Origin: Clostridiales bacterium
GTDB taxonomy: Bacteria > Bacillota > Clostridia > Christensenellales > JAISNN01
Assembly (NCBI GenBank): GCA_031289865.1
Contig: JAITOQ010000008.1
Coordinates: 1-31,968, forward strand
Reading direction: 5' to 3'
Length of the DNA: 31,968 nucleotides
Shown: one piece after another, positions 22,539 to 31,549 of the stretch
How positions within the stretch are numbered: the stretch's first letter is position 1
How the letters are laid out: each line of letters begins with the position of its first letter
Program-made: the position numbers and the translations under genes
Notes under the pieces: model-generated
What the model saw: only the letters and a program-made list of their open reading frames with translations
Told to the model about the DNA's origin: nothing
Database searches by the model: none

Positions 22539-22736
22539 TTAATACCGATCGTCCTCGGTCGTATATTGATAGAGCGGCTGATTCATCGTACCGTACGGTA
22601 CGAGCGATATCGGCTGAACTATCGGTGTGAGCTGAATGATATCCGACGGCCTTTCGATAGGCATCGGCTGACTGACGGGAGCTTGTCCGTAGACTATTCT
22701 CCTGACGGGCTTTGGGATATGTGATTTGCGTGCCAT
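22539..22736 (-). CDS. Small hypothetical Pro/Gln-rich protein (65 aa) sharing a 23-aa motif with the upstream membrane protein
   Basis: Strong SD AAGGAGGTG; motif conserved at protein level with many synonymous DNA differences. Confidence 0.8.
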   Translation of the reverse strand: MARKSHIPKPVRRIVYGQAPVSQPMPIERPSDIIQLTPIVQPISLVPYGTMNQPLYQYTTEDDRY

Positions 22737-22812
22737 AATTTTTGCACCTCCTTCTTAAATTTCCTTTGTAAACTTAGCGTTCGTGCCCGATAAAAACTCG
22801 TTTAAACGACTT

Positions 22813-23787
22813 TTATTTTTCTTCGGGGAGCGCGCCCTCTACGGGCAGATATTTTTCGGTAACGATAAACGCGTTTGCAAGAATGAGCGCGACCGATATT
22901 CCAAAGAGGACATACATTCCGAAGCTCATGCGGAACAAAAGCTCCTCGCTGTTTTGCAGCGACAAAATTATCGAATCGAACGCCCCGCGTGTCGTCGTGA
23001 TATTCATGAGTATAATCGCCGCTAATAGTACCAACGCAAGTACGAGCAGCAAAACATTTGCCTTATACGGTCTGCGTTTGACCTTTCCCGTTATGGATTT
23101 GACGATATATTTGACGACGTTATAAGCGAGAACCAAAAGTATCAATATAACCGTAACCGCCGCGAGGTGTGAGCCGACCATGATGACTTGCGGTATTTGG
23201 AATCTAAAATAGAATTCAAAGCCCGTATTTTCCCCAAGCTGTGCGCTTTGACCTTTAAAGAGCGCGGAGATGATCTCGAGTCCGCTGTATCCCGATATGA
23301 CGGGAAACGCCAAAATGATGATTATCAAGGCGACGGAGAGCGCGAGCATAAAGAGCGCGACGCCGCGGTGTTTGATATAGCCTTTTTCGGGCATAACGGT
23401 TTCGACTTGATATAGCGGTTGATTTTGGGTAGTATACGGCACGAACGAGACGGGGATCACGATAGGCGACAGCTGAACGCTGCCTCCCGGGTTCGGGATC
23501 GGCGAATTTTCCACATAACCGTAGCCTGCGGCGACGGTTTGTCCTTGTTGTACGGCTTGCTGTTGCGGCTCATATCCGATCTGTGCTTCTTGCTGTTGCT
23601 GCGGCGGCTGCTGCTGTGCGTATGGGTCGGGTTGACCGTAACCGTACGCATAGTAGTCGTTTTGCGGCACACAGTAAGTCCGTATGTAAAAGTCGCATTC
23701 AAACTTATCTGTACACGACTCGCATTCGGATAGGGAGCAAGGATCGGTCAAGACGCTCGGCTCTGCATTTTTTATTTTCTTGCCCAT
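22813..23787 (-). CDS. Hypothetical membrane protein: N-terminal Cys cluster, Gln-rich linker, shared motif, about 4 TM helices
   Basis: CSLSECESCTDKFEC..YC; QQQPPQQQQ; QLSPIVIPVSFVPYTTQNQPLYQ; GAGGA SD supports ATG 23787. Confidence 0.8.
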   Translation of the reverse strand: MGKKIKNAEPSVLTDPCSLSECESCTDKFECDFYIRTYCVPQNDYYAYGYGQPDPYAQQQPPQQQQEAQIGYEPQQQAVQQGQTVAAGYGYVENSPIPNPGGSVQLSPIVIPVSFVPYTTQNQPLYQVETVMPEKGYIKHRGVALFMLALSVALIIIILAFPVISGYSGLEIISALFKGQSAQLGENTGFEFYFRFQIPQVIMVGSHLAAVTVILILLVLAYNVVKYIVKSITGKVKRRPYKANVLLLVLALVLLAAIILMNITTTRGAFDSIILSLQNSEELLFRMSFGMYVLFGISVALILANAFIVTEKYLPVEGALPEEK

Positions 23788-23935: not shown

Positions 23936-24559
23936 TCAAGCCTTTGCGCTCAATTTCCCGCCTTTTCCTTTGGCTTTTGACTTTGCGGCTTCGGCTATTT
24001 CCGTTACGGCATTCACTGCCGCGTTTTTAGCTTCCTTTTTTGAGGCATTCGCCGTCCCGCCTTTAGTCTTGACCGCCCCTACCCCGCCTTTGACCTTTCC
24101 CGTAAACGAGACTGTAGCGGAGATTAGTGAAGAACCGAGGACGGTATAGTAGCCGTAATCGATCTCCTTTAAAAAGGTACCGAGCGGAACGCCGCCCGTA
24201 GCGGCCTCATATATCCCGTAGCCCAAAAAGCAAACGAACGCGATCACGGCAAAGATTTTCCGACCCGCGAGTTTTTTGTTCACCATACCGATGACGGCGG
24301 CGACGACCGCGGCGACCGACACTATGACGCCGAGTACAAACGCGGTATCGTCGAGCAGCGCGACAAGTCTTGACCAATCAAAGTTTTTAAGGTATTCGAT
24401 AAAATGAGCGACGGGCGTCCCGCCGTTGAGTATTTCGGGCAGTGACGGCAAAAACTGAGGTACGATCGCCGCCGCCGACGCAATCATCGAAAAAACAAAC
24501 CCGATAATCGCGCTCCACTTTTTAATTGTCATCTTTTCTTCTTTTTTCTTTTTGCACAT
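23936..24559 (-). CDS. Hypothetical membrane protein (about 4 TM) with Lys/Ala-rich tail
   Basis: AGGAGA SD before ATG 24559; hydrophobic segments; own promoter. Confidence 0.8.
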   Translation of the reverse strand: MCKKKKEEKMTIKKWSAIIGFVFSMIASAAAIVPQFLPSLPEILNGGTPVAHFIEYLKNFDWSRLVALLDDTAFVLGVIVSVAAVVAAVIGMVNKKLAGRKIFAVIAFVCFLGYGIYEAATGGVPLGTFLKEIDYGYYTVLGSSLISATVSFTGKVKGGVGAVKTKGGTANASKKEAKNAAVNAVTEIAEAAKSKAKGKGGKLSAKA

Positions 24560-24588: not shown

Positions 24589-24617
24589 ATTATACAACTA
24601 ACTGCCCGTTCTGTCAA
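24589..24617 (-). promoter_or_regulatory. Perfect-consensus sigmaA promoter
   Basis: TTGACA(24617-24612)-17-TATAAT(24594-24589). Confidence 0.85.
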
Positions 24618-24922: not shown

Positions 24923-27900
24923 TTACCACTTCCGTGCCGGTCTTGTTACATCCTTTTTGATTTCCACGATAGGTTCTATTTTCTTTACCGCTTGTTTTGA
25001 CAAGACCTCCGGTTTTTTCAATCCGTTCACGAGATCGATATCGAGCTGACTGCGCGAATCCGGCTTTCTGCCTTTTTTGACGACGCGTTTGATTTCGGTC
25101 TGATTTCCGTAATTTGAGCCGACCTTTAGGCTGACGTCTTGTTCATAGGTTTGTCTGACGTTTTCGACCTTTGCCGCATAGTTATTGAGTTGAGTTGCCC
25201 GTGCTTTTCCGCGGAGAGCTTCGGCGATTTTCCTCTTTTTCACGAGAGCGAGTATGAGCCATAAAAGCCCGCCCGTGGCGGCTGCCGCGCCCGTGCCCGC
25301 GCCTATCGGCACGAATATCGAGGTGAGATACTTTGACTCGACGTCGGCGGCTTCGTAGTTATTCGCATCCTCGTCGTTCGTAAATCTAAAGCTGACGTTG
25401 TAGGTTTTGTAATCGCTGACTTTGGTTTCGGTTCCGTCGATTTCGCCCTCGCCGATATTAAACACATACGCAAGCGACGGATAATCCGATCCCTCTATAA
25501 TCAACTTTGATTTTTCGCGGGTTACTGTGAATGTCACTACCGCTTTTTTGACCGTCACGGTGACGGTTATGTCGTCGGCGTAATAATTCCCGTCCAAAGA
25601 CGCTTCGTCTAACGAATACGTCACCGTATACACGCCCGCTCTCAAGATTTCCGATACCGTCGCGCCGTCGTACGAGATCGTCTTAATTGTCGTCGCCGCC
25701 GTTCCTCCGATCGCTTGTACTGTGCAATTCGGTATCGCAAACGCCGTCCCCGTATAGGTTTGTGTTTCGGAATTCGCCGTGAGCGTAGCTTTTGCTTTAT
25801 TGATTATATAATCCGTGATATAGACCTCTCCGCCCGTAAACAGATTGCGGATTGTGCCTTTTGAGATATCGATATTGACGGTATAGGTTCCCGCGTTGAT
25901 CGGGTCTGCCGTCGCCGCGCTCAAATAGTATGAGAGGTACGCGGTGAGGTCGCCCAAATGCAAGAGTATACCCTTATAGCTGATCACTACCGAAGCGAAT
26001 TGTGTCGCCGAGGTATAAGTCGTCGAGTTTACGGTTATATAAAAGTCCGTGTTGCCCGCGGCGTATTCGAGCGGCGTCACGGTGATTTGTCCGTAGACCG
26101 TTGCGGTGATATTCCCGCCCGCGACCGTCGGCGTTACGTCGTAGTCGCCCGCGTTCAAGTAACCGTTCGCGTCCGACGATTTATCGGAATCTCCCGCGTT
26201 TGACGCCAAGGTAAAGCCTAAAAGAAGCTCCTCCCATACTCCCGCCGCCGGTGCGCCCGAATACGAGCCGTAAGTCTTACCCGCGATAATCGCGCCGATT
26301 GCGTTTTCAAAACCCGTCCCGACCGCCGCGGAGAGCTCCGCCGCCGTCAGTCCCAGATAGCCGCTCTCTTTCACGGTTTCGATACCCCACGCGGCAAAGT
26401 CAAACGCCGCCGCGGTAATCTCACCGACGTTATTCACGGTGAGCGTACCGTTAAAGCCGTTCGCCCATTCCCAATTGCCCGTGTCCAAGAGTTCAAAGGT
26501 GAAAGTAACGGTTTTATTCTTTCCGACGTTTTTGTTGTCGTAGACCGCGCTCACGAGCTTGACGGTACTCGCCGTCAACGTCCCCGTACCGGAGAGCGTC
26601 CAAGTAAAGTAAGTATCGAGATCGATACCCGACGAAGCCGTCGTCACCATAACCGGTAGCCAATCCGCGTCGTATCCGCTGTTTACGACATAGCTTGTCG
26701 CATCGTACACCTTGAGTGTCAAAGCCGTCAGATCACTGCCGCTTATCTCAACCGCACCCGCCTTTGCCTTTGTCACCATGAGGTCCAGCGATAGATCGAC
26801 CGTCACTTTATAGTTTGTATCCGACGACGGCGTAAACGTTACCGTGTAGTTTCCTCCGTCCGATACTGCAAAGATATCTCTTCCGACGACGGGTATAGCC
26901 GCTTTTAGATTGACGGTACCCGTTATCGTTTGACCGTATGACCCGTTCGCCGTCACGGCAAACGAATCGATATCGTCCAATGCCGCCGCCGTCGCCGCTT
27001 GTAGGCTTGTCACAAATAGCGGTGTGATTTCTCCCGCCAATGTCAAAGTAATGTAAGGCATGCCGCTATCGTACACGGTTCCGTCTACCGTAAGTATATA
27101 GCTTGCGGCTTTTAAAAATCTCAACGTAATCGTCACGTTAGGATTTCCCGCGTTCGCGTTGACATACGCCGCTGCCGTGGACACTGAAAACAGTGTGATA
27201 AAGCCGTCATTACCCGCAAATTCTACCTCAAGATAGGTTCCCATTGTGCCGAGGTTGAGCGGTGTTCCCGTTCCCGTATCGTATGCCTTTACCACGTCCG
27301 CGATTTGCGTAATAGTGATTTCCTTTCTGCCAACCGTGAGCGTTAATGATAATCTGTTGGCATAGGTACCGCTATCGCTTACCGTATAGTTGCTGTCCGA
27401 CGACGTAAATAGGACATAATACGTTCCCCCGTCGGATATTTCGAGATATAGCGTACTCTCAATTATCGTTCCCGTCCAAGCTATGCTCCCCGCGACCTCA
27501 TCGCCGTCTATCCCGTATGCCGTTGCCGCCGTCGGCTTTGTCGCGCCGATTATCACCGATATAGGCTTTAATGCTTCGGTTAGGATATACGGATTGATTT
27601 TGACGGTACTGCTCACCGCCCATTCAAAGGTATAGCCGCCGTTCGTGTTTATTACGTTGTAGTTTTGATTTGTATTTGTAGCCGACGTTGAGAGGGTTGC
27701 TTTGGTTGCGCCGTTCACGCCCGAAACATTCACTTTATCGTATACAAAACCGCCGAAGCTTAAGATCGTTCCGAAGCCTTGTCCCGCGAGGAAATCTCCG
27801 CTCGTAACGCTCAAATAATCTCCCCAAACGATATTGCTTCCGTCGACCGCCGTCGTTCCGACCTTGACCGCCGTCCCCTTGTCATATTCCTTTTGTATCG

Positions 27901-30900
27901 TCGGAGCCAAAACCCTATCTATCGTGATATTTATCGGACTGATCGTCGCTTTTGTCGCGCTCTTCGGTAGATCGAATGTAAGCCCGCCCCCGCCGTTTAT
28001 ATTGTAGTTTGAGTTGATAGAGGTCAGAGTGAGCGTCGCTTTGCTGTATGCCGATACGTTTTCATTGTCATACACAAACGAACCGTAACCAAAGACGTCC
28101 GCCCAACTGTGTACCAACACGCCCGAATTATTTACAAATCCTCCCGCGGTCAGCTCCAACAAGCCCCAAATATCGCTTGCCGTCACAACGTTAACGCCGA
28201 TCTTGACCGTCACCCCGCCGTCGTAAGTCTTTGTCACGGAAGCGGAGGTTTTAAACGCTACCGTCAAATCTACCTTATTGATATTGACGCTCCCGCTCGT
28301 TCCGCTTTGTGCCGCGGTGTCAAGTACATAGTTGTTTGCATTTTGCGTTGACGTGAGCGCGATTCCCGATACCGAAATAGTATAACCCGTCCCCGCATTT
28401 ACTCCGGAGTATGTCGCGCTTGTCACCGTAAAGTCGGTGTTGTAAGTGAGGCTGTCGCCGCTGACTATCCCCGTAAAAGTGAGAGTATAGTTCGCGGTAT
28501 AGCTTGCCGTCGCCGACCCGTCGTAGGTCTTGCTTTGCCCGTTCACCGTTACGCCGGTGAGGGTTTTCGGGTTTATCTTAAATTCGATATATTTTGATGC
28601 GTTAAGCGTGACCTTTAGATTTGTAGATTCCGCAAACGTCACACTATAAAACGCCCCGCCCGCTTTTACCCCGTAGTAAGGGTCGCCCGATACGGCGGCG
28701 TTGTCCACAAGCGAGAGCTTGTCGCCCGCATACCAAGCCAAAAACGCAGCTTGTTCCGCGCTTAGCGCGATCTTAGGTGTCGGCGTGTCGTTTGTAACCG
28801 CTGTCGCAAACGCGGACGTGAGCTTTGTCTGATATCCGCTTGCGATTGCCGAATATAACGTCCCGTAAGTATAGGACTCGCGGCTGTCGAGGGTTCCGAG
28901 ACCGGCGACGTCGGTAGCCGCTCCCGCAGCCGAAACATAGACCTTATCGACCGCAACCGCCACGGAGAAAGTTATCGGATTGTAATTGATCGTCCAATTG
29001 ACCGTCCCGTTGAAGCCGTCGCCTATCGTATTATAAGGGCTATAGGTCACCGTATAATAGACCCATGTACTCCCGCCCGTCCAGCTGGTTTGTCCCGCGA
29101 GCGGGTCAAAGGTCGCGACGTGATAGTACGCTCCGTCTTTCTTTATCCAATTTGTAGACCCGCCGTCGATACTCGCTTGCGCGACCGTCGTCCAATTGAT
29201 TTTTCCCGCAATCGAACCCCCGCTCCCCGAAGCCACGGTGTCATTGACCCCGTACATATAATAATATTCGTTGTTGTTGAGCGACGTCCCAAAACCGGGG
29301 TTGACCCGTCGCGTTACCGGATTAGCTTTTGCGATAGTAAAATTGATTACATACGAGCCGTTATATTCTCCCGACCCGCTCGCCTTGCTCTGTACCGTCA
29401 AGGTATATGAGCCGGCGTCCGTCGGCGCGGAGCTTGTAGAAGAATACGCCGTTCCCGCGCTATTCGCCCCCGACCACGTTTTCGAATCTATAGCGCCGTA
29501 TGTATCACCTCGACTCTCATGACCTACCAACGCCAACATGGTAATCGTTTCCGCGACCGTAGGACTTTGAGGCGACCCGTTATAGGTAAAGCTTGTACCC
29601 CCTTGCGCGGGAGCGAAAGGCGCAAATATAGCGTCGATCAATACAAACACTCCGCTACCGCCCGGCTGATCGCTAGTCCTTGCGGAAGGAGTGGCAAATT
29701 GCCATCGCCCGACAGTGATCGTTTGAGTATTCTTGGTATATTGGTCAGACCAATACATTTGAAAATACGAGCCGTTGTCCGACGTAGCCGTATAGGTATA
29801 AGTTGCTTTCATATCGGTTGCCGTAGGAAAATTCACCGCAGCCGCTGCCGTGACATAACCCGCTGACGTAGCAAGATTCCCCGCGATTCCCGTACCCGTC
29901 ACTTTACCGGACGCACTATACCCCACACCGCCATAGTCGTGTCTGCTCCCGACCCTTATCTCGTCGGCTTTTGCATAGGTGTAAGCGACCGATACGCCGT
30001 CAATCCATGTGTTGGCGTATCTGTTACTAGAAGTCGTAGAGTTTCTATAAACCTGCGCGCTAATCAAGAAATAAAGATTAGGGTTTGCCGCAAGAGTCGC
30101 ACCCGGAATCGTTACCCACATCTCCTTTAACGTTGTAGAATCCATCCCATAATTAGGTCTTGTCCCGCTTGCTCCGGTGTTAGAAGAGCGTTGTCGAACA
30201 AGTGGAGAAGTAGCATCTATGTCTGTTGCGTTTGGATTTGTCGATGCAAGCCCCGGCGTAGTCGAATTCCATAATGCCGACCAATAAAGCCAACTAGTCG
30301 CACCTCCTATAACCGTATACGCCGAATATCTGATGTTCACCGACACGGACGTTATCCGTCCCGCAACAAGGGCATCCTTTACAGCTCCGGTGAAGTTTAT
30401 ACTATAACCAGAGTATGACTCCATCGTCTGCGTGTTGTTTGTAAGCTTATGTACCGAATAGACTTCCGTATTAGATGACGGAGGGTCTGAAGCCGTTTGA
30501 TGAGTGTAGTATTTTGCAGAAGATACGTCTATATCGGTGATCGTTGAAAAATCCACACTACCTTTTGCGCTAAATTGAGTACCGTTGCCGCTACTCGTCG
30601 CCACTCCGGTAGCTTCCGTTGTGGTTTCCGACGCACCGAGAATCTGAAGCTCTGCGCAAGCTAAGTATTGACTATTCGTACCCGTTGTTGACTTAACCCG
30701 AAGTGCCACATAACGCACTTTGCGCGCCGTAGGAAATATGACCTTATCCGTTTTTCCGGTTGCGTTTACAGTTGTATCAAAGTTAGGGAAATTAGCATGA
30801 CCGGCACTTGAAGAACCAATCAATGTAAAGTAATTATTCAATGCAGTCGGATTAGTCCCGCTCGTATATAAATTATTTAAATTACTCCAATTAATATCGG

Positions 30901-31549
30901 CATATACTCCCGTTCCCTCTCCCTCTTGTAAACTTGTATATATGTCGTATGTGCTTATACGACCGTTTGCGCTGCTACCCGTTCGTCCGTAATGTAGAAG
31001 TCCTATAACCCATCTCGGCGTACCCAAATCGACAATTATAGTGCATCTATTTACATTTGTCACAATAAAACTACCAATGCCTCCGCTGTTCGCTAACCCG
31101 TATGCCGAACCGTTGACCTCTGCACACGCGTTGATTTCGTTACCGCTACCGCTGCCGCCGCGTGAAAGAAAGGTATCGTTACCGCTCTCAGCGTTCAGAC
31201 CCGAGCCGTCGTTAAGAGCCGCAACCCTTTTATAGGTCGTTGAACCGTTCCCGTCGGGCGCAATCGCCAAAGAGTAGTTGTCAGGCGCTAAGGCTATCGT
31301 ATAATTTGCAAGTCCGCCATAGCCGTAATAAGCATTCGGGTTTGTCGTAGCGTCCCAGTTCGTCAACGCCGCCGCACTTGTAACTCCGCTCTCGCTCTCT
31401 TCAAAATCGACCGCGGAAACCGACCCGCCGCCCAAAAAGCGACCGATCCCCAGCCCCGCAACCGCACTAAACCCGATCGCAAAAATCAAGGCAAATACAA
31501 ATACCTTTAGCCCTAACCGTAACTTTGTTTGTTGTTGTGATTTCTTCAT
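24923..31549 (-). CDS. Giant secreted, membrane-anchored surface protein (2208 aa): signal peptide, F5/8 type C (discoidin/CBM32)-like domain, repeated YDG/MBG-like beta-sandwich stalk, C-terminal TM helix and basic cytoplasmic tail
   Basis: Basic N-terminus + hydrophobic stretch + VSA; HYGR...NGRISTYDIYTS...ARKVRYVALRV...ELQI; repeated K(T/E/A/V)YD motifs; IFVPIGAG...LWLILALVKKRK; GGAG SD. Confidence 0.85.
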   Translation of the reverse strand: MKKSQQQTKLRLGLKVFVFALIFAIGFSAVAGLGIGRFLGGGSVSAVDFEESESGVTSAAALTNWDATTNPNAYYGYGGLANYTIALAPDNYSLAIAPDGNGSTTYKRVAALNDGSGLNAESGNDTFLSRGGSGSGNEINACAEVNGSAYGLANSGGIGSFIVTNVNRCTIIVDLGTPRWVIGLLHYGRTGSSANGRISTYDIYTSLQEGEGTGVYADINWSNLNNLYTSGTNPTALNNYFTLIGSSSAGHANFPNFDTTVNATGKTDKVIFPTARKVRYVALRVKSTTGTNSQYLACAELQILGASETTTEATGVATSSGNGTQFSAKGSVDFSTITDIDVSSAKYYTHQTASDPPSSNTEVYSVHKLTNNTQTMESYSGYSINFTGAVKDALVAGRITSVSVNIRYSAYTVIGGATSWLYWSALWNSTTPGLASTNPNATDIDATSPLVRQRSSNTGASGTRPNYGMDSTTLKEMWVTIPGATLAANPNLYFLISAQVYRNSTTSSNRYANTWIDGVSVAYTYAKADEIRVGSRHDYGGVGYSASGKVTGTGIAGNLATSAGYVTAAAAVNFPTATDMKATYTYTATSDNGSYFQMYWSDQYTKNTQTITVGRWQFATPSARTSDQPGGSGVFVLIDAIFAPFAPAQGGTSFTYNGSPQSPTVAETITMLALVGHESRGDTYGAIDSKTWSGANSAGTAYSSTSSAPTDAGSYTLTVQSKASGSGEYNGSYVINFTIAKANPVTRRVNPGFGTSLNNNEYYYMYGVNDTVASGSGGSIAGKINWTTVAQASIDGGSTNWIKKDGAYYHVATFDPLAGQTSWTGGSTWVYYTVTYSPYNTIGDGFNGTVNWTINYNPITFSVAVAVDKVYVSAAGAATDVAGLGTLDSRESYTYGTLYSAIASGYQTKLTSAFATAVTNDTPTPKIALSAEQAAFLAWYAGDKLSLVDNAAVSGDPYYGVKAGGAFYSVTFAESTNLKVTLNASKYIEFKINPKTLTGVTVNGQSKTYDGSATASYTANYTLTFTGIVSGDSLTYNTDFTVTSATYSGVNAGTGYTISVSGIALTSTQNANNYVLDTAAQSGTSGSVNINKVDLTVAFKTSASVTKTYDGGVTVKIGVNVVTASDIWGLLELTAGGFVNNSGVLVHSWADVFGYGSFVYDNENVSAYSKATLTLTSINSNYNINGGGGLTFDLPKSATKATISPINITIDRVLAPTIQKEYDKGTAVKVGTTAVDGSNIVWGDYLSVTSGDFLAGQGFGTILSFGGFVYDKVNVSGVNGATKATLSTSATNTNQNYNVINTNGGYTFEWAVSSTVKINPYILTEALKPISVIIGATKPTAATAYGIDGDEVAGSIAWTGTIIESTLYLEISDGGTYYVLFTSSDSNYTVSDSGTYANRLSLTLTVGRKEITITQIADVVKAYDTGTGTPLNLGTMGTYLEVEFAGNDGFITLFSVSTAAAYVNANAGNPNVTITLRFLKAASYILTVDGTVYDSGMPYITLTLAGEITPLFVTSLQAATAAALDDIDSFAVTANGSYGQTITGTVNLKAAIPVVGRDIFAVSDGGNYTVTFTPSSDTNYKVTVDLSLDLMVTKAKAGAVEISGSDLTALTLKVYDATSYVVNSGYDADWLPVMVTTASSGIDLDTYFTWTLSGTGTLTASTVKLVSAVYDNKNVGKNKTVTFTFELLDTGNWEWANGFNGTLTVNNVGEITAAAFDFAAWGIETVKESGYLGLTAAELSAAVGTGFENAIGAIIAGKTYGSYSGAPAAGVWEELLLGFTLASNAGDSDKSSDANGYLNAGDYDVTPTVAGGNITATVYGQITVTPLEYAAGNTDFYITVNSTTYTSATQFASVVISYKGILLHLGDLTAYLSYYLSAATADPINAGTYTVNIDISKGTIRNLFTGGEVYITDYIINKAKATLTANSETQTYTGTAFAIPNCTVQAIGGTAATTIKTISYDGATVSEILRAGVYTVTYSLDEASLDGNYYADDITVTVTVKKAVVTFTVTREKSKLIIEGSDYPSLAYVFNIGEGEIDGTETKVSDYKTYNVSFRFTNDEDANNYEAADVESKYLTSIFVPIGAGTGAAAATGGLLWLILALVKKRKIAEALRGKARATQLNNYAAKVENVRQTYEQDVSLKVGSNYGNQTEIKRVVKKGRKPDSRSQLDIDLVNGLKKPEVLSKQAVKKIEPIVEIKKDVTRPARKW

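Follow-up and report, generated by a model that had tools for sequence, protein, structure and literature searches.

Why should a 65-residue mini-protein and a 324-residue membrane protein, encoded one behind the other, carry nearly the same 23-residue peptide? The two genes, P0002 and the downstream P0001, lie on the minus strand of the window, by which we mean the whole stretch of 31,968 nucleotides analysed here (contig JAITOQ010000008.1 of assembly GCA_031289865.1, from a Clostridiales bacterium placed by GTDB in the Christensenellales; Table 1). The stretch was found in one sequencing run, of termite-gut metagenome DNA, and the genome to which it belongs is a termite-gut metagenome-assembled genome (MAG) of 1.93 Mb that is 84.5% complete. 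An initial annotation had proposed a self-contained two-gene unit in which the shared motif serves homotypic assembly or docking and builds a membrane-tethered scaffold or polymer, or in which the small protein acts as a soluble decoy. Our results support this interpretation in part. A peptide for docking or assembly that exists in tethered and free form is, as a general idea, compatible with all observations, but the pair is not self-contained: by sequence comparison it is the tail of a cluster of 8–10 genes, and the gene upstream of it, of 207 codons, encodes a paralogous anchor with a promoter match of its own.

Table 1. Positions of the features discussed, with the order of the cluster's genes in and outside the genus
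Feature	Position	Strand	Description
Intrinsic terminator after P0001	22494–22521	minus	Stem-loop and U-run, −17.7 kcal/mol, z −3.3
P0001	22539–22736	minus	65-aa mini-protein: basic N-terminal end, pre-box, VPY motif (22566–22634), short acidic/aromatic tail
P0002	22813–23787	minus	324 aa: Cys-rich head, Q/P/Y-rich linker, VPY motif, four-helix anchor
Four-helix (tetraspan-type) domain of P0002	22861–23361	minus	Predicted N-in/C-in topology; AlphaFold2 helices
VPY core of P0002	23386–23478	minus	Residues 104–134, predicted cytoplasmic, 19 residues before TM1; matches the family profile
Cys cluster of P0002	23671–23739	minus	C17-x4-C22-x2-C25-x5-C31-x7-C39
Promoter-like site before P0002	23849–23877	minus	TTGAAA-17-TATACT, 10/12; consensus match only
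Paralogous four-helix anchor without motif	23936–24559	minus	207 aa; Lys/Ala-rich C-terminal tail
Promoter-like site of the 207-aa anchor	24589–24617	minus	12/12 consensus match
Region of apparent insertion	24923–31549	minus	Also contig C21 (L006 7485–8323)
Gene order, genus			Zn-ribbon-4TM, 4TM, mini, mini, 4TM, (mini), 4TM, fused motif-4TM, mini
Gene order, outside genus			glnS, Zn-ribbon-4TM (decayed motif), 4TM, mini, 4TM, mini, fused ~214, mini ~125, fused ~324, secE-nusG-rplKAJL

The shared peptide is real and under selection. The two stretches (22566–22634 and 23407–23475, minus strand) translate as had been claimed, with 17 of 23 residues identical, and the similarity between the two proteins reaches 21 of 35 residues (BLASTP, E 3e-11). 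At the nucleotide level the stretches share 46 of 69 positions; 7 codons are identical, 10 differ synonymously and 6 change the amino acid. Across four members of the genus, the mini gene has a pS of about 0.7 (dS being saturated) and a dN of 0.13–0.20, giving dN/dS of 0.06–0.11. The earlier inference of selection at the protein level is thus borne out by the different codons at 10 of the 17 identical residues and by the low dN/dS of the mini gene, and the E value, the codon differences and the dN/dS together rule out chance or recent duplication as the source of the shared motif. P0001 has orthologues in three other species of the genus, in which frame and length are kept, and a GGAGG site lies 10 nt upstream of its ATG; judged by these comparisons, the 65-aa ORF is a real gene under strong purifying selection. 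Across the family, the motif has the consensus IQLTPIVQPIALVPYSTQxQP, from which we call it VPY.

The view that the motif belongs to no known family also held: it has no match in Pfam, NCBIfam, PHROGs, PADLOC or PDB. P0001 matched zero families in the first four of these collections, the motif profile found 0 PDB sequences at E ≤ 10, and a full-text literature search returned no paper with the peptide string, nor any that combined tetraspanin, zinc ribbon and Firmicutes. The four-helix domain of the anchors is likewise without match in Pfam, NCBIfam, PHROGs, PADLOC or PDB sequences; a Zn-ribbon paralogue on contig C21 gave one weak PHROG match, on its Zn-ribbon part. The sliding-clamp motif (QLxLxL) and motifs of the PxIxIT/LxVP type were rejected by eye, as the invariant proline positions do not fit them.

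P0002 itself is built as had been described, with its Cys cluster, Q/P/Y-rich linker and four transmembrane (TM) helices all confirmed by sequence, orthologues and AlphaFold2. Nine orthologues were found, at 39–47% identity overall, and the protein's best matches outside the genus are fused genes of ~324 codons, which on sequence grounds makes P0002 orthologous to the last fused gene ("F~324") of an order-wide cluster. Mean pairwise identities by region, computed over the ten P0002 orthologues (39–47% identical overall, about 45%), reveal a steep gradient. The VPY core stands at 0.98, in line with the expectation that the motif would be conserved in orthologues; the C-terminal tail (0.73) and the cytoplasmic TM2–TM3 loop (0.72) follow, then the TM helices (0.42–0.60) and the outer loops (0.37–0.39), and the linker, residues 41–87, is the region of lowest conservation (0.33). 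Among 56 fused proteins of all paralogue types, whose mean column identity is 19%, the only invariant columns lie in the motif. These alignments support the motif as the functional core of the P0002 family and, as the anchor drifts and the peptide does not, point to a conserved target on the cytoplasmic side. A cytoplasmic position of the motif is itself a prediction from sequence: an N-in topology is suggested by the heads, which carry Zn ribbons or Cys clusters, by groups of K/R residues that precede TM1 and recur in the loop between TM2 and TM3, and by the absence of any signal peptide.

The Cys-rich head is a putative metal- or Fe-S-binding element specific to the genus. All five cysteines are invariant in 10 sequences (P0002 and its nine orthologues), and F~324 proteins from other families lack the cluster. 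Among the credible ORFs of the genome the spacing occurs in P0002 only; four other matches to the regular expression fall in frames of 58–118 codons. No zinc-ribbon Pfam family matched the head at E ≤ 1, and it has just one CxxC pair, against the two CXXC knuckles that a zinc ribbon requires. We take the C-x4-C-x2-C-x5-C arrangement to be closer to the N-terminal Fe-S ligand pattern of FNR than to a zinc ribbon, and its C-x2-C-x5-C part presumably recalls the ligands of WhiB-like Fe-S proteins. One public gene call puts the start of P0002 at a GTG inside the ORF; the resulting product of 285 aa loses the basic N-terminal leader and the five cysteines. Because the cluster is invariant in nine orthologues, we place the start at the ATG at 23787 and regard the 285-aa call as too short.

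P0001 had been described as little more than a basic leader plus the motif. This understates it, as a conserved pre-box (RRIVYG...P) and the acidic/aromatic tail are also present. The same plan recurs in the free minis at large, which are 60–140 aa long and consist of a basic N-terminal end, a weak pre-box, the core motif and a variable C-terminal tail that is rich in D (31%), E (24%) and Y (18%) and often ends in Y. Many minis of other families (P0036–P0047 and similar) begin MSRKSKK or MSRKSRK, starts that fit the S-R-x-x-R/K pattern which the AuxB study (PMC12505970) cites for GpsB-binding motifs; minis of the window's genus begin MAKK or MARK instead. The window's genome contains one ORF with a DivIVA domain (C26:690-929). 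In one relative of the genus the mini profile also matched, less strongly and over its N-terminal two thirds, a 57-codon frame that lies outside the cluster (G004:C75:54279-54437).

The promoter and terminator thought to frame the pair are found where they had been placed (Table 1), and P0001 follows P0002 after a gap of 76 bp. A small hairpin with a U-run (22780–22812, minus strand) directly follows the P0002 stop; its fold is not significant by shuffling (z −0.6), and it may be a weak attenuator between the two genes. More widely, minis follow closely on the anchor gene upstream of them (median gap 30 bp), and the distance from a mini to the next gene ranges from −38 to 467 bp.

The pair is part of a larger array. 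In the window's genome the motif occurs exactly five times, always inside the cluster, with two copies in the window and three on contig C21 (8.3 kb), where three minis of 69–74 aa alternate with four membrane proteins of 174–460 aa, the largest of which carries Zn ribbons (Zn_Ribbon_1 matches). The window holds the last three genes, namely those for the 207-aa anchor, P0002 and P0001; by sequence the cluster is one of tetraspan anchors interleaved with minis, here split over two contigs, and its anchors are distant paralogues of one another. In relatives the gene before the fused one encodes an anchor of ~150 aa, and the 207-aa anchor matches these proteins (BLASTP, E 4e-20 to 4e-21). Its C-terminal ~50 residues (23936–24100, minus strand) form a basic, Lys/Ala/Gly-rich tail that is missing in the ~150-aa orthologues and has a histone-H1-like or membrane- or nucleic-acid-binding look. 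That the genus's short anchors (150–207 aa) correspond by gene fission to the fused ~214-aa gene of other families is a guess from position, the BLAST similarity being too weak to assign them. Compared with relatives, an extra short-anchor copy (174 aa, on C21) and a gene for a 2208-aa surface protein seem, from the gene order, to have been inserted inside the cluster, between its two halves. The ends of C21 and the window do not overlap, and their adjacency rests on synteny in relatives only; a dispersed REP-like inverted repeat at the C21 end, with 36 core copies in the genome, probably broke the assembly there. The gene flanking the cluster in this genome is asnS.

To place the cluster among bacteria, the motif profile was searched against word-indexed proteins, 1.84 billion representatives, species-representative genomes and the window's GTDB order. 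The word-indexed search returned 61 small relatives of the mini, and 182 protein clusters matched at E ≤ 1e-3 among the 1.84 billion representatives. The species-representative genomes gave 61 loci, all in MAGs labelled Christensenellales, Christensenellaceae, Candidatus Stercoripulliclostridium or just Clostridia, whose sources were digesters and the guts of termites, chickens and ruminants. Within the window's order, the cluster is present in 17 of 201 sampled genomes and 3 of 42 families. Four relatives of the genus have the whole cluster on a single contig, gene order outside the genus is remarkably constant, and the order of the cluster is kept in all three families; the Cys head, and a mini that follows the last fused gene, occur in this genus only. 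No conserved gene from outside the family accompanies the cluster, whose flanks are glnS, secE-nusG-rplKAJL or asnS.

Three architectures of the motif emerge from these loci: the free mini; the motif fused to four TM helices, ending 19–96 residues before TM1; and a split form, in which a soluble multi-Zn-ribbon protein ends in the motif and its stop overlaps the start of a separate four-helix gene. The split form is found in all four matching genomes of one family (f36). Since the peptide occurs with the anchor both fused and split, it appears to be functionally tied to it. Among the longer motif proteins, no domains other than Zn ribbons are fused to the motif. A motif-less second anchor of ~295 aa in other families (L065 3214–4143, L080 2224–3069) has a conserved N-terminal peptide of its own (..LSSPY..), and different anchors of the cluster may, to judge by their sequences, carry different cytoplasmic heads.

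AlphaFold2 models P0002 with a pTM of 0.71 and four TM helices at pLDDT about 90, and the four-helix domain of a ~214-aa paralogue from another family also folds (both with family alignments). Neither model docks the motif, which is left as coil, with a pLDDT of 58–71 in P0002 and 36–54 in the paralogue. Such predicted disorder is as expected for a peptide that folds on a partner, and would also be expected in a monomer model were the peptide to pair with further copies of itself or with another paralogue's anchor. A complex prediction of P0001 with residues 88–324 of P0002, both with alignments, gave an ipSAE of 0.01 in two runs without controls and speaks neither for nor against an interaction. 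Foldseek found no PDB neighbour of the four-helix fold at E ≤ 1e-3. Exhaustive structural alignment gave Z 8–10 against many four-helix bundles, including claudin-fold proteins, TARP, GARLH4, MP20 and synaptophysin but also soluble bundles; since the soluble ones score as high and such Z values are usual for four-helix bundles, nothing specific follows. Neighbours in the ESM Atlas are other unnamed four-helix proteins of Bacillota, with Zn-ribbon or FHA heads.

Three described groups of membrane proteins invite comparison. AuxB (DUF4064) of S. aureus, a bacterial tetraspan, docks the soluble adaptor GpsB through a cytoplasmic SRQAKY motif, and its TM domain pairs with other membrane proteins (PMC12505970). 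It shares with P0002 the logic of a four-helix membrane anchor bearing a cytoplasmic docking peptide and, by analogy, is the best functional precedent, although its motif is C-terminal, basic and 6 residues long, whereas VPY is N-terminal, proline-rich and about 30–45 residues long, and AuxB is the product of a single gene without free-standing motif proteins or a paralogue array. P0002 did not match DUF4064 at E ≤ 1, nor did the anchors (E ≤ 0.1–1) or the 56 members among the matches listed, and no GpsB-binding motif of the S/T-R-x-x-R/K type was found by eye in P0002. LetA and PqiA of Proteobacteria resemble P0002 in that their four-helix, tetraspan-like TM domain comes after a head that is cytoplasmic and either Cys-rich or of Zn-ribbon type, and their modules can be encoded by adjacent genes; modules of LetA, each a Zn ribbon with a tetraspan TM domain, heterodimerise via their cytoplasmic heads (PMC13017536). 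However, the LetA/PqiA cysteines are arranged as CXXC-Xn-CXXC before the TM domain, whereas those of P0002 have the spacing given in Table 1 and lie about 100 residues before TM1; the three-stranded outer beta sheet of LetA/PqiA contrasts with AlphaFold2 models of two paralogues, in which the outer loops form only short helices; the GRWSM-type motif is not seen in the anchors; and LetA lacks a VPY-like peptide. PqiA (PF04403) matched neither P0002, five paralogous anchors and ten relatives (E ≤ 0.1–1) nor residues 88–324 of P0002, and no MCE gene (PF02470) was found in the 84.5% complete genome or in the annotated flanks. The claudin/TARP/GARLH/MP20 superfamily, which includes scaffolds and auxiliary subunits, has a similar four-helix topology with a long first outer loop, but its structural Z of 8–9 and Atlas TM-scores of 0.47–0.48 are within the range of generic helical bundles, and the extracellular beta sheet of the Claudin/PMP22 families (PF00822, PF13903), which have a conserved W-GLW-C-C loop, is missing from the AlphaFold2 models. 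One of the 56 members gave a weak Claudin_2 match (E 0.012) among the matches listed.

We tentatively favour a model in which VPY is a cytoplasmic docking peptide, carried by membrane anchors and by co-expressed soluble copies, that holds a putative conserved partner. On this model the short linear peptide would be the working part of the four-helix anchor family in some Christensenellales. P0002 would display one copy at the membrane's inner face, on a stalk of flexible, low-complexity sequence beneath the Cys-rich head, and P0001, co-transcribed and made alongside it, would be a further copy, soluble or loosely attached. Other minis would be made in step with the anchor gene that precedes them, as the short median gap suggests, and the anchors and minis of the cluster would form a multivalent membrane platform that keeps the partner at the membrane. 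We infer both the binding of a partner by VPY and the joining of anchors and minis in one complex. The minis may be held to the anchors by charge, with their acidic tails (median net charge −6) facing the basic juxtamembrane regions; in anchors that lack the motif and precede a mini, the N-terminal region carries a net charge of +12 (median). The correlation between anchor and mini-tail charge is weak (Spearman −0.36) and kin-biased, the relatedness of the sequences being uncorrected.

The same arrangement might instead be built without an outside target, along the lines of the homotypic assembly proposed in the initial annotation. VPY peptides would then bind to one another, or to paralogous anchors on their cytoplasmic side, and the five anchors would join with the minis in a hetero-oligomer or lattice, much as pairing of Zn ribbons holds two LetA modules together. 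An operon-like array with so many motif copies and paralogous anchors would suit such an assembly, as would the conservation of the anchor's cytoplasmic loop and C-terminal tail and the precedent of LetA modules from adjacent genes, whose heterodimers are stabilised by cytoplasmic heads (PMC13017536). We consider it unlikely, given that the peptide is not docked on its own anchor in the two AlphaFold2 monomer models, that three to four prolines in 13 residues would disfavour regular beta pairing, and that near-invariance of the peptide across paralogues whose anchors drifted to about 20% identity fits one common target better than a multitude of anchor surfaces that co-evolve with it. Another reading, to which we likewise give little credence, makes the minis soluble decoys or regulators that compete with the anchored copies for the partner and thereby tune its share at the membrane. 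The same core peptide does exist without an anchor, and P0001 has its own strong ribosome-binding site, but a decoy would need only the core, whereas the minis also conserve the pre-box, the basic N-terminal end and the acidic/aromatic tail, and they are encoded 14–30 bp behind anchor genes, as would be expected of stoichiometric subunits.

Two further readings give the minis a role other than binding. MifM, SecM and VemP are encoded by small lineage-specific ORFs beside membrane-biogenesis genes and have a conserved peptide near the C-terminal end followed by acidic residues; the layout of MifM resembles that of the minis, which are small ORFs between membrane-protein genes with the same succession of conserved peptide and acidic residues. 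The motif could accordingly be a pausing or arrest peptide that acts in the ribosomal tunnel to control membrane-protein synthesis or insertion. We think this very unlikely, as P0001 is followed by a terminator and not by a regulated gene, the variable spacing noted above leaves no fixed distance from mini to next gene, the minis have no N-terminal sensor segment (signal peptide or TM segment) with which to sense insertion, the motif contains no consecutive prolines, and it is equally invariant within mature, full-length anchors. That the minis are modified or exported peptides, RiPP-like precursors in which the conserved part is the recognition sequence, might be suggested by several near-identical small genes in tandem with variable C-terminal tails. 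This is highly improbable: no gene for a modifying enzyme, protease or transporter was found in or beside the cluster in about 65 loci, the tails are simple D/E/Y runs, and the same sequence occurs inside membrane proteins.

The Christensenellales, gut bacteria that are heritable and associated with health, are for the most part uncultured, and their cell biology is poorly known. In some of them, a core syntenic cluster lies beside glnS and secE-nusG-ribosomal protein genes, and its membrane domain and peptide match nothing described; this synteny, the unmatched parts and the nearly unchanged peptide point to an undescribed, probably housekeeping, membrane-associated process. The window adds to this picture the genus-specific Cys head, an extra mini after the last anchor, figures for selection on a mini gene and a conservation profile by region. 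A more speculative and, in our judgement, rather doubtful extension is that about five paralogous anchors with Q/Y/P stalks, together with soluble VPY minis, form a "tetraspan web", a multivalent and possibly condensate-like submembrane platform that organises a conserved cytoplasmic machine and that the Cys-rich head of the termite-gut genus could couple to redox or metal state. The VPY peptide is short enough to be synthesised and used as bait, which makes its partner, and through it the function, directly testable, and the system would add to the very few bacterial scaffolds of tetraspan type, represented by AuxB and LetA.
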